Shown here piece by piece: positions 7,191 to 11,897 of a stretch of DNA of 64,000 nt. How positions within the stretch are numbered: the stretch's first letter is position 1; each line of letters starts with the position of its first letter. Source of the DNA: Candidatus Omnitrophota bacterium (GTDB lineage Bacteria > Omnitrophota > Gorgyraeia > Gygaellales > Profunditerraquicolaceae); assembly GCA_026387335.1 (NCBI GenBank), contig JAPLLX010000001.1, positions 234,620-298,619 on the forward strand, given 5' to 3'. Both the position numbers and the translations under genes were made by a program. The notes under the pieces were generated by a model that was given only the letters and a program-made list of their open reading frames with translations, was not told where the DNA came from and made no database searches.

Positions 7191-8048
7191 ATGGAGCCGT
7201 CCCCATTATTTTTTTCTATGAATGCAGATAATCTGGCAGAAGAAAATCACCGTGCGCGCTCAAACTTCGTGCGGGGGCTTGTTCAGCGTTCAAGCGGTCT
7301 TGCTACCGCATCCCCCGTATTCACCAACAACCCCCCGATGAGGATTGTGCAGTTTTGGGACGATCTGGATCGACTGCCTGAAGATGTGGACGAAAGCATC
7401 GAAACATGGAGGAAGACAGAGGAGCAGGGCTTTGAAAGATTACTTTTCGACAAGTGCCAAGCAAGAGATTTTATTAGGCGAAGACTCGGTGCACGGCACA
7501 AACGAGCCTACGACAAGTGCTATCACCCAGCAATGCAGTCAGACTATTTTCGACTTTGCTATATCCTCGTGGAGGGTGGCTGTTACATTGACGTTGACGA
7601 TATTTACGGAGGTTCCCAAATCCAGCACCTCTTCAGCGATTGTCGGTTAAAAATTCAACCCCTATGCTATGACATAGCGACAAATATGATGATTCCACCA
7701 TCGCGTTTTACTAAACCAGGAGCAAGCGCCGCTAGCTGGATTTTCTACTTTAATAACAATCCGCTAATTGCTGGCTGTGGGCATCCATTAATAGAGCGTG
7801 CACTCGCTCGAGCCACCCTTTCCCTTGAGAAAGACATGACAAACGGATTACCAGAAATCCAATCAACAACTGGCCCAGGGAATCTTACCAAATCGATATT
7901 TGACGCTGTAACTGAGAGTAGCGATATCGAACAGACCCTTCTTGTGCTTTGCGATTGGGAAAACATTGTCAAAAACAGATGGAAACTCAGCTATAGGAAC
8001 GATGCAAGGAACTGGAGGCTTTCGAACTGCAGATGTTATCAAAAATGA
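7191..8048 (+). CDS. Glycosyltransferase with DXD sugar-binding region (GT32 / Och1-TcdA-like, Gly_transf_sug).
   Basis: IVQFWDD ... AMQSDYFRLCYILVEGGCYIDVDD matches the Gly_transf_sug signature. Higher GC and different codon usage than neighbours. Confidence 0.7.
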   Translation: MEPSPLFFSMNADNLAEENHRARSNFVRGLVQRSSGLATASPVFTNNPPMRIVQFWDDLDRLPEDVDESIETWRKTEEQGFERLLFDKCQARDFIRRRLGARHKRAYDKCYHPAMQSDYFRLCYILVEGGCYIDVDDIYGGSQIQHLFSDCRLKIQPLCYDIATNMMIPPSRFTKPGASAASWIFYFNNNPLIAGCGHPLIERALARATLSLEKDMTNGLPEIQSTTGPGNLTKSIFDAVTESSDIEQTLLVLCDWENIVKNRWKLSYRNDARNWRLSNCRCYQK

Positions 8049-8076
8049 TTTGCCAAGAACATATCGAGGGGGATGA

Positions 8077-10257: not shown

Positions 10258-11897
10258 ATATTCTTTCTTGTAATCCCGGCCATGATGGCGCGATCGCGTA
10301 TCTGAAAGATGCTTGTTTGGTGTTTTCTATTGAGGCGGAGAAGAACTCGAACTACCGATACTCGCCCACATCCAGTCAAGACGTGTTCAAAGTTCTCAGA
10401 GAACTTGACGAATTGCCCGACGTTATTTGTGCTGGCGGTTGGTGGCCACGCGAAGAGCACTTACTCGGGTCGTATGATCATGTTGGATACCGAGGTGTGA
10501 TGAAAAGCGACGTTATTATAGAAAAAAGGTGCCTATTAGGAAGGCGCATTCATTATTTCTCGTCTTCTCACGAGCGTTCGCACTTACTGTGTGCTTTCGG
10601 TATGTCAAGTCTACCGAAAGGCACCCCGTGCTATGCGCTAGTGTGGGAAGGTTCTATCGGTGCTTTCTACGAGATTGACGACCGTATGAACATAACGCGG
10701 ATTGCCGATGTCATGAACGAGCCCGGGCATCGCTACGCTCTTCTCTACGGCCTGGCCGATCCGTCCTTTAACAAAAATGGAGCGTATTCACTTCATTCAG
10801 ACGCAGGGAAGCTCATGGCTCTGACCTCATACGCGACTCGAAAAACGCCCTCGGTTGAAGAGCAGAAGCTCATCGAATTTCTACTCCAAGGTTGCGTGCA
10901 TCTTGAGCCTCGAGCGTGCAACGACCTTAAGCATTCACGTTACTACAATATAGGAGTTGATGACCCAGAATTTCGCAACCTTGCAGGCATTTTTAGTAAC
11001 AAGATTTTTGACATCTTTTATCAATTCGCGAATGCGAATATGAAGAAAAGAATGCCGCTAATCATCGCAGGCGGATGCGGCCTGAATTGCGACTGGAATA
11101 CTAAATGGAAAGAATCAGGCCTTTTTTCCGAGGTCTTCGTGCCGCCTGTTGCAAACGATTCGGGTTCTGCGATTGGGACAGCGATCGACGCCCAGTTTCA
11201 TTATACTGGGAATCCTAAGGTTGATTGGAACGTCTATTCAGGCCTCGCCTTCGACACGACCGAGCCTTTCGATATTGCGCGGTATGATCTCTGCGAAGCT
11301 GATGATGAAAAGATTGCCGATATGTTAGCCAATGATCTTATTCTGGGATGGGTGAGTGGCAAATATGAAATTGGTCCGCGGGCCTTGGGCAACCGTTCAA
11401 TTCTTGCCGCACCATTCCGAGAAAGCACCAGAACGCGATTGAATGAGATCAAGCAACGCGAGCAATTTCGTCCGATTGCTCCAGTTTGCTTAGAAGAAGA
11501 GGCTGCACGATGGTTCGGCTGCGACCACCCTAGTCCATATATGCTTTATACTTACAAAACGAGAACGGATGCATTGGTAGCTGTTACTCACGTGAATAAG
11601 ACTGCCCGCATTCAGACGGTGTCGCCTGAGTCCAACCGTAGTTTGTACAATTTGCTCGTTGCTTTCAAGGCACGAACTGGTTACGGCGTCTTGTGTAATA
11701 CCTCATTGAACTTCAATGGTAGGGGGTTTATAAACAAGATCGATGATCTTTCATCATATACTATAAATTATAACTTGGATGGCTTTGTAGTAGAAGGGCG
11801 CAGTTATGTTTTGAAGTCGTCAAAGAGTTATCAGGTATACTTAAAGCATGTCAAAATCTATAGCTGGACAAAATGTGATGCCTCATCGCGCAAATAG
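10254..11897 (+). CDS. Carbamoyltransferase of the NodU/CmcH/NovN family.
   Basis: N-terminal ILSCNPGHDGAIAYLKDACLVFSIEAEK matches Carbam_trans_N (ILG..HD.A.ALV.DG). Size of about 550 aa. Start overlaps the upstream stop (ATGA). Confidence 0.75.
   Translation: MNILSCNPGHDGAIAYLKDACLVFSIEAEKNSNYRYSPTSSQDVFKVLRELDELPDVICAGGWWPREEHLLGSYDHVGYRGVMKSDVIIEKRCLLGRRIHYFSSSHERSHLLCAFGMSSLPKGTPCYALVWEGSIGAFYEIDDRMNITRIADVMNEPGHRYALLYGLADPSFNKNGAYSLHSDAGKLMALTSYATRKTPSVEEQKLIEFLLQGCVHLEPRACNDLKHSRYYNIGVDDPEFRNLAGIFSNKIFDIFYQFANANMKKRMPLIIAGGCGLNCDWNTKWKESGLFSEVFVPPVANDSGSAIGTAIDAQFHYTGNPKVDWNVYSGLAFDTTEPFDIARYDLCEADDEKIADMLANDLILGWVSGKYEIGPRALGNRSILAAPFRESTRTRLNEIKQREQFRPIAPVCLEEEAARWFGCDHPSPYMLYTYKTRTDALVAVTHVNKTARIQTVSPESNRSLYNLLVAFKARTGYGVLCNTSLNFNGRGFINKIDDLSSYTINYNLDGFVVEGRSYVLKSSKSYQVYLKHVKIYSWTKCDASSRK

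Follow-up and report, generated by a model that had tools for sequence, protein, structure and literature searches.

The window analysed here is a stretch of 64,000 nt from the genome of a Candidatus Omnitrophota bacterium (contig JAPLLX010000001.1, positions 234,620 to 298,619), and its subject is a block of 4.7 kb in which a glycosyltransferase gene, a gene for a three-domain fusion protein and a carbamoyltransferase gene follow each other on the forward strand. This block is likely one copy of a widespread three-gene cassette that was horizontally acquired and now sits, without recognisable recombination sites, in a strain-variable slot of its host. The parts of this conclusion differ in strength. 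Horizontal acquisition is practically certain because the block has an outlier composition, is absent from syntenic relatives and has homologs in other phyla at 85-87% identity and a synonymous divergence (dS) of about 0.3. It is highly probable that the three genes, here called the trio, function together as one unit. For the glycan or glycoconjugate decoration chemistry that we outline below from the domains, we put the chances as evenly balanced. The genes and their domains are listed here.

7218..8048, forward strand: gene 1, GT32-like DXD glycosyltransferase, 276 aa from the conserved ATG at 7218
8077..10257, forward strand: gene 2, three-domain fusion protein, 726 aa
8212-8826 (about aa 46-250), forward strand: GT25 domain of gene 2 (Pfam Glyco_transf_25)
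8992-9375 (about aa 306-433), forward strand: sulfotransferase-like alpha/beta domain of gene 2 (marginal Sulfotransfer_4)
9712-10158 (about aa 546-694), forward strand: GH16 domain of gene 2 (Pfam Glyco_hydro_16), with an invariant EIDIE catalytic motif
10254..11897, forward strand: gene 3, O-carbamoyltransferase of the NodU/CmcH/TobZ family by Pfam and PDB profile, 547 aa

A preliminary description, made by reading the same DNA, had given three linked open reading frames (ORFs) at 7191-8048, 8077-10257 and 10254-11897, with a 28-nt gap between the first two (8048/8077) and an ATGA overlap between the last two, and this arrangement was found as described. The open frame of gene 1 reaches back to the ATG at 7191, where a better local AAGG resembling a ribosome-binding site is located; the conserved start is the ATG at 7218, giving 276 aa in the homologs and in NCBI's call. 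The domains named in that description, namely a DXD glycosyltransferase, a GT25-GH16 fusion and a NodU/CmcH-type carbamoyltransferase, agree with Pfam. Gene 1 matches Gly_transf_sug/DXD with 30.9 bits (cutoff 23) and has the features of the GT32 family (Gly_transf_sug/Och1-like), including the GT-A fold. Gene 2 matches Glyco_transf_25 (3e-15, 57 bits, cutoff 24) with the DD of GT25 conserved, and Glyco_hydro_16 (3e-26, 92.4 bits, cutoff 22) with the ExDxE motif of GH16 present; the invariant residues of the fusion protein include D164, D165, E595, D597 and E599, the last three across 20 sequences. Gene 3 matches Carbam_trans_C (1.3e-54) and, partially, Carbam_trans_N (3e-24), both above cutoff, and in the PDB it matches GdmN, NovN and TobZ at 1e-34 to 1e-26. 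Its C-terminal tail (ending in ASSRK before the stop codon) is in a frame that differs from most sister copies and is common to an Omnitrophota copy, L005 (individual loci and contigs are designated by L numbers). Transmembrane segments and signal peptides are predicted in none of the three proteins.

The composition of the block was evaluated against the rest of the window. It had been described as a distinct block of about 50% GC; the distinctness stands, the GC is about 48% (0.479, versus 0.407 upstream and 0.425 downstream) and GC3 is not raised, since its values of 0.46-0.49 fall within the window range of 0.37-0.50. The GC excess sits in GC1 and GC2 (GC2 is 0.41-0.45 versus about 0.33), and the proportion of arginine, R/(R+K), is 0.52-0.74 in the trio versus about 0.35. 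Synonymous codon use also shifts between the rest of the window and the trio. CGA rises from 0.02 to 0.21, CCA from 0.06 to 0.30, GCA from 0.13 to 0.30, CTC from 0.07 to 0.25, TTC from 0.23 to 0.41 and GAG from 0.38 to 0.51, while TTA falls from 0.33 to 0.13 and ATA from 0.34 to 0.15. The rise of CTC, GAG and TTC reported earlier is therefore recovered, but CGC, said to rise with them, falls from 0.21 to 0.17.

Part of this pattern could be expected from a native block, vertically inherited, with an odd composition due to the amino-acid constraints of the enzyme families or to expression level. GC3 lies inside the window range, amino-acid usage explains part of the GC excess, and dnaK (17.5-19.4 kb), the source of the GC peak at 18-19 kb, has a GC as high as 0.49. 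However, our codon z-score is a length-corrected log-likelihood that is conditional on the amino-acid sequence of each gene, and it is -12.1, -9.5 and -8.5 for the three genes; the other 51 genes, dnaK with its normal codon usage among them, have a median of +0.3, and none scores below -1.7. In the 64 kb, no gene outside the trio is a compositional outlier. By tetranucleotides, too, the 4-kb windows at 7-11 and 8-12 kb deviate most (z = 4.5).

The same explanation can be judged from the host locus. The host is a Candidatus Omnitrophota metagenome-assembled genome (MAG): an Omnitrophica MAG encodes the adjacent MiaB with 100% identity on a 329-kb contig (328,928 nt), and all further MiaB matches are from Omnitrophota at 75% identity or less. 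Related Omnitrophota have a common backbone at this place, consisting on the left of LPG-synthase, NYN, metallo-beta-lactamase-fold and mechanosensitive-channel (MS-channel) genes, then of a variable slot, and on the right of miaB, TPR/SPOR, miaA, hflX, hrcA, grpE, dnaK and dnaJ. In the window the slot is as follows.

2842..12082, forward strand: variable segment of the host, between the MS-channel gene (2091-2768) and miaB (12083-13228)

It contains a 152-aa ORF, a histidine kinase gene, a response regulator gene, a gene for a 397-aa membrane protein, a 34-aa ORF and the trio. In L090, L091 and a contig of the European Nucleotide Archive the backbone is kept and the trio is absent; the slot cargo in L090 and L091 is a P-type ATPase gene, with or without PMT_2 and a methyltransferase-GT2 gene. 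The closest relative found, L085, whose membrane protein is 96% identical, matches the window up to 7120 and then diverges. An empty site was sought among the relatives; L085 is not empty, as it holds feoB and conjugation-type cargo, and the distant relatives have the other slot cargo. Syntenic relatives without the trio, and trio homologs that are 85-87% identical in other phyla while MiaB falls to 75% within the phylum, are both contrary to vertical inheritance, as is the low dS across phyla, and we regard a native origin as very improbable.

An assembly chimera had been raised as a formal alternative, and the wider possibility is an assembly or binning artefact in which a foreign contig was joined to an Omnitrophota scaffold. 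The compositional break does coincide with the gene block, and several independent contigs do end near its edges, at 7076 and 12202. Contiguity was checked against single-run Logan assemblies of other sequencing runs. L001 (SRR20698650) is 100% identical to window positions 2298-13870, a span that takes in both junctions and has host genes on either flank; L002 (SRR20698638 and 5 other samples) is 100% identical and covers 7076-12202; L003 (ERR15302224) is 100% identical over 7351-12202, reaching miaB. The NCBI MAG contig of 328,928 nt also holds both MiaB and the GT32 gene. Because independent single-run contigs span both junctions at 100%, the chimera is excluded, and we give almost no credence to an artefact of any kind. 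As for the shared break points, L002 begins at 7076 and stops at 12202, inside miaB, where L003 stops as well; this suggests branch points of the assembly graph that come from strain heterogeneity.

The trio is not confined to this host. Relatives were sought in a one-genome-per-species collection, where 157 stretches encode a relative of the fusion protein, and 80 loci were kept. About 66 of the 80 keep the order GT32, fusion, carbamoyltransferase, so that the trio does recur as a unit in other genomes, and none of the 80 kept loci shares the window's neighbour genes. At least 12 phyla contain the trio, and conjugative plasmids carry it as well. Its closest homologs are spread over many phyla instead of lying in the same context within the host lineage: more than 100 database clusters match the fusion protein at 71-87% identity, with MAG labels that include Omnitrophica, Nitrospirota, Methylobacter and Anaerolineales. 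The nearest relative belongs to another phylum for 32 of 62 copies, and the mean identity is 0.659 within phyla versus 0.642 between them. Between the window copy and those of Desulfobacterota and Planctomycetota, dS is 0.30-0.34 and dN/dS, with dN the nonsynonymous divergence, is about 0.23; because of these values across phyla, the trio genes are under purifying selection and their divergence is far more recent than that of their hosts. The GC of the cassette regresses to about 0.49 against flank GC (slope 0.42, r = 0.67, n = 67). Horizontal acquisition, as the preliminary description had proposed from composition, is thus borne out by the composition, the cross-phylum homologs and the relatives that are without the trio.

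The fusion family is compact, with 203 representatives at E <= 1e-30 among 1.84 billion and about 40 of full length (clusters at 50% identity). Its hosts include monoderm bacteria or bacteria that are without lipopolysaccharide (LPS), represented by a closed Bacillota chromosome, Desulfosporosinus and Chloroflexota, and copies are present in cultured strains of Citrobacter, Klebsiella, Pseudomonas, Thiobacillus, Rhizobium and Flavobacterium. A megablast search of complete E. coli genomes gave no match to the trio, and the papers covered by a literature search held no description of the three-domain architecture or the trio.

The acquisition mechanism had been left open in the preliminary description. 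Sister copies now point to an integron cassette, although the window copy has no recognisable sites of its own. The DNA similarity of the window to its closest sister cassettes (83-86%) is confined to the segment from 7213-7217 through 11902-11910. Exact ends were mapped in the best-sampled subclade, that of L027. There, L027 (a chromosome-scale Blastocatellia contig) and L028 (a Clostridia-labelled MAG) are 99.0% identical over 4,930 nt with unrelated flanks, and no target-site duplication was seen at their junctions. At the left end the unit starts G↓TTCGCCTGTGGAGG in 5-6 hosts (it reads G↓TTCGCC, the arrow being the boundary of the unit), and at the right end GGCGAAC-(44 nt)-G↓TT is found in 4 hosts. 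The right end is a 58-nt hairpin (z of -2.3, bottom strand), and its 5' (R'') box exactly complements the first bases of the unit; judged by its bases, this complementary end is the signature of an integron cassette with its attC. An earlier fold of the whole 215-nt L027 tail had been negative for attC and is superseded by the exact end mapping, the constrained scan and the covariance model.

A constrained hairpin scan of the L027 array yields 10 sites of about 92 nt (GYCTAAC...GTTRRRY), compared with 0, 0 and 0 in the shuffles. When aligned, the sites form a textbook attC family with compensatory changes in 8 of 22 pairs. The covariance model finds at least 15 attC sites in L027, including sites on which it was not trained, and one of the same family in L028. 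One of the sites, at L027 8917-9018 (E = 6e-12), abuts the left junction of the trio; no integrase was found in the 22 kb of L027 that were covered. We conclude that the trio of the L027 subclade is, from its ends and its array, a genuine and unusually large integron cassette inside an attC array. In addition, two-gene versions that are without the carbamoyltransferase gene are flanked by classical attC hairpins in L041 (z = -3.7; 0 of 200 shuffles fold as well), L021 and L053, and an IntI-like integrase with 34% identity to IntI1 over 320 aa lies 6 kb from the trio in L034. The IntI1 probe is validated by its match at 100% to the class 1 integron in L087. This integron (L087:9796-11860, C. 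freundii pCf164_LMB-1; intI1, arr-3, dfrA27) lies about 5 kb from a trio, which is outside the class 1 array because IS21 and a DUF262 gene lie between them.

In the window's own clade (L016, L010, L019), the unit begins G↓TTAGAC, and on the right the box GTCTAAC shares bases with the stop codon of the carbamoyltransferase gene. The window holds a degenerate counterpart of the right box:

11902..11908, forward strand: GTCCAAA, degenerate counterpart of the GTCTAAC box (attC R''-type), where the DNA similarity to the sisters ends

Many sisters have a conserved non-coding leader of about 115 nt before the GT32 gene (L010:9024-9141, L016:9024-9141, L019:9057-9169, also L007, L009, L011 and L083), with an internal GATGTRCCA repeat and variable small ORFs; an Rfam search with it gave only a sub-threshold, wrong-strand sR7 match. 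The window copy has neither this leader nor the G↓TTAGAC end. Sister copies can thus move as unusually large multi-gene integron cassettes of about 5 kb, and are also carried by plasmids and by integrase- and defence-rich islands; the window copy would have been fixed as a cassette and would have lost its recombination sites. For the window copy as a fossilised integron cassette that lost its 5' end and attC, which extends to it what is shown for the sisters, we hold the arguments for and against to be of equal weight.

Conjugative plasmids carry full-length copies in Citrobacter freundii (IncC), Klebsiella (IncFII; K. michiganensis), Rhizorhabdus wittichii (pSWIT02), Aliarcobacter, Sphingobium and Rhizobium. 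Some variants were also observed. The K. michiganensis plasmid pKmfe267-2 (IncFII; L094:5687-10948) has a two-gene version with the glycosyltransferase and the fusion protein and without the carbamoyltransferase, bracketed by two genes for tyrosine recombinases of about 200 aa in the same orientation; the bracket may be another mobilisation mechanism. On symbiosis plasmids of Sinorhizobium fredii/sojae (L093:8030-9178), a lone truncated carbamoyltransferase gene lies among IS66, IS110 and IS5; it has 79.5% DNA identity to the Citrobacter plasmid copy and looks like the remnant of a decayed cassette. In L060 and L068 the carbamoyltransferase gene is shifted 1.8-3.4 kb downstream of the fusion gene, which implies insertions inside the cassette.

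What the trio does has to be read from its domains. The three soluble cytoplasmic proteins would form one pathway. A retaining GT-A enzyme of the DXD type (GT32/toxin-like) and the GT25 domain would move sugars from nucleotide sugars to an acceptor. The GH16 domain, with its catalytic residues intact, would trim or transglycosylate the beta-linked product, sulfate addition or nucleotide binding may fall to the sulfotransferase-like domain, and the TobZ/NodU-type enzyme would O-carbamoylate a hydroxyl with carbamoyl phosphate and ATP. The earlier proposal that the trio builds and carbamoylates an oligosaccharide fits these domains, but they would suit a protein or another molecule as acceptor just as well; the candidates are a lipid-linked envelope precursor, a protein and a small molecule. 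Since the unit is portable, brings no transporter and occurs in monoderm as well as diderm hosts, one would expect an acceptor that is universal or of non-host (invading) origin.

One alternative places the trio in decoration of the cell envelope. It would act at the cytoplasmic face on lipid-linked precursors of LPS core, O-antigen, capsule or teichoic polymers, and its beta-linked sugars and O-carbamoyl groups would diversify the surface, as nodU and nolO do for Nod factors or as in carbamoylated LPS cores. GT25 is a family of LPS and lipooligosaccharide (LOS) beta-1,4-glycosyltransferases, NodU-type enzymes O-carbamoylate sugars, the same slot in Omnitrophota relatives holds other glycan genes (PMT_2 and the methyltransferase-GT2 fusion), and a polytopic membrane protein adjoins the trio in the window. 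Against this, the monoderm and LPS-less hosts have to be set, together with the neighbourhoods, which are not polysaccharide loci. A transporter, flippase, polymerase or ligase travels with the trio in none of the kept loci, and a cytoplasmic GH16 domain is unusual. We consider envelope decoration unlikely.

The neighbourhoods were surveyed with Pfam and PADLOC. Among the 265 ORFs nearest to the cassette across hosts, Phage_integrase is the top Pfam family (9 ORFs), and other frequent families are OLD/AbiEii-type ATPases, IS110 transposases, Pycsar TIR effectors, UvrD and HerA helicases and restriction-modification domains, with MmeI and ResIII also present. PADLOC gave strong matches of neighbours to GajA (Gabija, E down to 1e-266), AriA (PARIS), PtuA (Septu), mad3 (MADS), Old and DRT, and Shedu, Abi, DUF262, IS21 and a restriction S subunit are found in the plasmid contexts. 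A recent preprint reports that phage-defence systems are often encoded by integron cassettes of unassigned function, homologs of which also occur outside integrons, in defence islands, with pseudo-attC sites (bioRxiv 10.1101/2024.07.02.601719). The trio might accordingly be a defence (conflict) system against phages and mobile elements, a large cassette similar to the bacteriophage-resistance integron cassettes (BRiCs) of that work, which glycosylates and carbamoylates a cytosolic target, whether a phage or host protein, a nucleic acid or a nucleotide, and makes no envelope glycan. Three soluble proteins with no exporter travelling along would suit such a role.

Several results do not suit it. 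PADLOC 2.0 assigned the trio proteins to 0 families at E <= 0.01, and no homolog was found among phage records. The neighbourhood counts are raw and have no background control, hence no fold enrichment can be stated. For gene 1, the glycan-directed GT32 enzyme Och1 scores as well as the toxins, and toxins are over-represented in the PDB. If the target were a protein or a nucleic acid, the presence of GH16 and sulfotransferase-like domains would be difficult to explain, and the neighbours in the window itself are housekeeping and signalling genes. A role in defence we consider unlikely as well, about as much as envelope decoration, and the fuller proposal, namely an unrecognised conflict or defence system that modifies a phage, plasmid or host target in the cytosol and spread between phyla as one of the largest multi-gene integron cassettes and through plasmids and defence islands, appears slightly less likely still.

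Our preferred reading, a horizontally acquired cassette with a putative decoration chemistry that now has no recognisable sites, has to be weighed against a number of observations besides the absence of PADLOC families for the trio and the uncontrolled neighbourhood counts. The first group concerns the integron. Most copies, that of the window included, have no detectable attC or nearby IntI. The covariance model found 0 attC sites in the window with filters off, and a strict hairpin scan of positions 1-20000 also found 0; the model was built from nine L027 sites, which are one Acidobacteriota family, and it misses other families. In the window's clade, the match of the model at L016 13817-13909, starting at GTCTAAC, has E = 0.03, where E-values are roughly calibrated, and a fold z of just -0.5, and the GTCTAAC box overlaps coding sequence and may be conserved for that reason. 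As a genomic island, the block has the composition, the absence from syntenic relatives and the incongruent phylogeny, and not the mobility gene, tRNA or repeats. The statement of the preliminary description that integrase, tRNA and direct repeats are missing at the boundaries holds: no IntI-like integrase, target duplication or flanking direct repeat was found in the window and no tRNA near the block, a tRNA search placing the nearest one 42.6 kb away.

The second group concerns the taxa and the function. The taxon labels are mostly those of MAG bins, and identical cassette contigs occur under two taxa, as with L007 and L008 (Gallionella and Methylobacter) and L057 and L058 (Flavobacteriaceae and Arenicella). 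The binning of these contigs is unreliable, as expected for DNA of foreign composition; nevertheless, many phyla are still spanned by closed chromosomes, megabase contigs and cultured isolates. As to function, substrate, product and phenotype are all putative and are read from domains throughout. The Sulfotransfer_4 match in gene 2 has 20.9 bits, below the Pfam cutoff of 22.8, and covers profile positions 2-97 of 215; for this reason the P-loop-like middle domain is described solely as sulfotransferase-like. None of the three proteins reaches an NCBIfam equivalog cutoff, and the matches are far below (267 bits for gene 3 against the NodU cutoff of 1000), so that no trio protein is the orthologue of a characterised enzyme; gene 3 is by these scores a member of the carbamoyltransferase family and not a NodU orthologue. 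An AF2 model of the fusion protein, made with 20 close homologs, has a pLDDT (predicted local distance difference test) score of 46.8 and was not used for fold claims.

The surroundings of the cassette in the window contain further features, listed below.

6979..7083, forward strand: hydrophobic 34-aa ORF of the host, overlapping the stop of the 397-aa gene and called in L001
7121..7213, unstranded: left junction segment, 93 nt, GC 0.33, matching neither L085 nor any sister cassette
11898..12082, unstranded: right intergenic region before miaB, GC 0.32, with a short CAAGCT/AGCTTG hairpin and no recognisable recombination site

The similarity to the host relative L085 stops at 7120 and that to the sister cassettes starts at 7213-7217. 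Special AT-rich flanks had been claimed for the block; the flanking intergenic GC of 0.38 and 0.32 is typical of intergenic DNA in the window (mean 0.376), and the left flank holds the 34-aa ORF. This ORF is probably a real small membrane protein within the supposed intergenic region, because its peptide is 100% identical in L085. An AT-rich inverted pair of 20 nt (6966-6985 and 11971-11990) brackets the block and was judged to be due to chance; it lies partly within host sequence that L085 also has. Scans for promoters and terminators did not rise above chance, an Rfam search of window 6900-12200 gave no match, and exact-protein look-ups of the neighbour genes gave matches on the same contig only.

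The 397-aa polytopic membrane protein (5789-6982) that adjoins the cassette had been called a GT-C membrane glycosyltransferase, a label that Pfam and the PDB do not support. It has no Pfam match at E <= 1, no PDB match and no real similarity to the PMT_2 neighbour, and the only homologs found are those in L085 (96%) and L086 (54%); by these searches it is an orphan family in the variable slot of the host. In L085 (11333-21191), the membrane-protein gene is followed by feoB and then by genes resembling those of conjugation or type IV secretion, which encode a VirD4/TraG-like ATPase of 755 aa as well as small VirB2/VirB3-like and VirB8/9-like proteins. The L085 region is a mosaic, because its histidine kinase is just 56% identical compared with 96-99% for the neighbouring genes.

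Horizontally transferred islands and integron cassettes are both well known. The trio stands out from them as a compact and strongly conserved family, without a described function, in at least a dozen phyla; its spread is recent enough that synonymous sites are far from saturated, and clinical plasmids of the IncC and IncFII types carry it. Some hosts have it as a three-gene integron cassette of 5 kb, and the window copy, for which integron ancestry has even odds, would be an example of an integron cassette fixed without its sites in the genome of a candidate phylum. The trio is also a candidate for new surface-masking or defence chemistry, because a unit that has no transporter and yet occurs in monoderms as well as diderms must have a universal or an invading target, and a candidate for a role of GH16 in the cytoplasm. 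These proposals are directly testable, as copies are present in cultured strains.

Finally, we compare the trio with known systems. Its likeness to integron cassettes and BRiCs lies in the L027-subclade unit with G↓TT ends, its own attC-like hairpin and the attC array, in the same unit being present in unrelated hosts, and, for BRiCs, in homologs that are also found outside integrons, in defence-type islands. Typical integron cassettes have one gene, and the trio unit (about 4.7-5.0 kb, three genes) is far larger. Unlike BRiCs, it has no recorded defence or resistance phenotype. Genomic and defence islands are similar in their atypical composition, in being absent from relatives, in the strain-variable slot and, in other hosts, in the integrase, transposase and defence neighbours, but the island in the window consists of three genes only, without mobility gene, tRNA or repeats.

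When the single enzymes are considered, gene 3 resembles NodU, NolO, CmcH, TobZ, GdmN and NovN by having Carbam_trans_N and Carbam_trans_C, an N-terminal GHDxA motif and a C-terminal half that aligns, whereas its partners are glycosyltransferases in a portable trio and not nod genes or an antibiotic cluster. The GT25 domain has its Pfam match and the DD at 164-165 of the fusion protein in common with GT25 enzymes (the LOS beta-1,4-galactosyltransferases, COLGALT1 and mimivirus R655), the PDB profile search giving COLGALT1, R655 and bacterial GT25 structures for this part, but here it is fused to the sulfotransferase-like and GH16 domains in a soluble protein of 726 aa. The GH16 domain has the E-I-D-I-E motif of the bulge-less type, as in lichenases, xyloglucan endotransglycosylases (XETs) and fungal Crh enzymes, and its best PDB matches are lichenases (1,3-1,4-beta-glucanases), XETs and Crf1. 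It differs from these GH16 enzymes in its C-terminal place in a multi-enzyme fusion, in scores far below the BglS and ExoK equivalog cutoffs and in its predicted cytoplasmic location, which follows from the absence of a signal peptide or transmembrane segment. Gene 1 is just 14-18% identical to GT32 enzymes of the Och1 type and to toxins of the GT44 type (TcdA/B, YeGT, PaTox, SetA); unlike them, it is a stand-alone protein of 276 aa, with neither the membrane anchor of Och1-type enzymes nor the delivery domains of the toxins.

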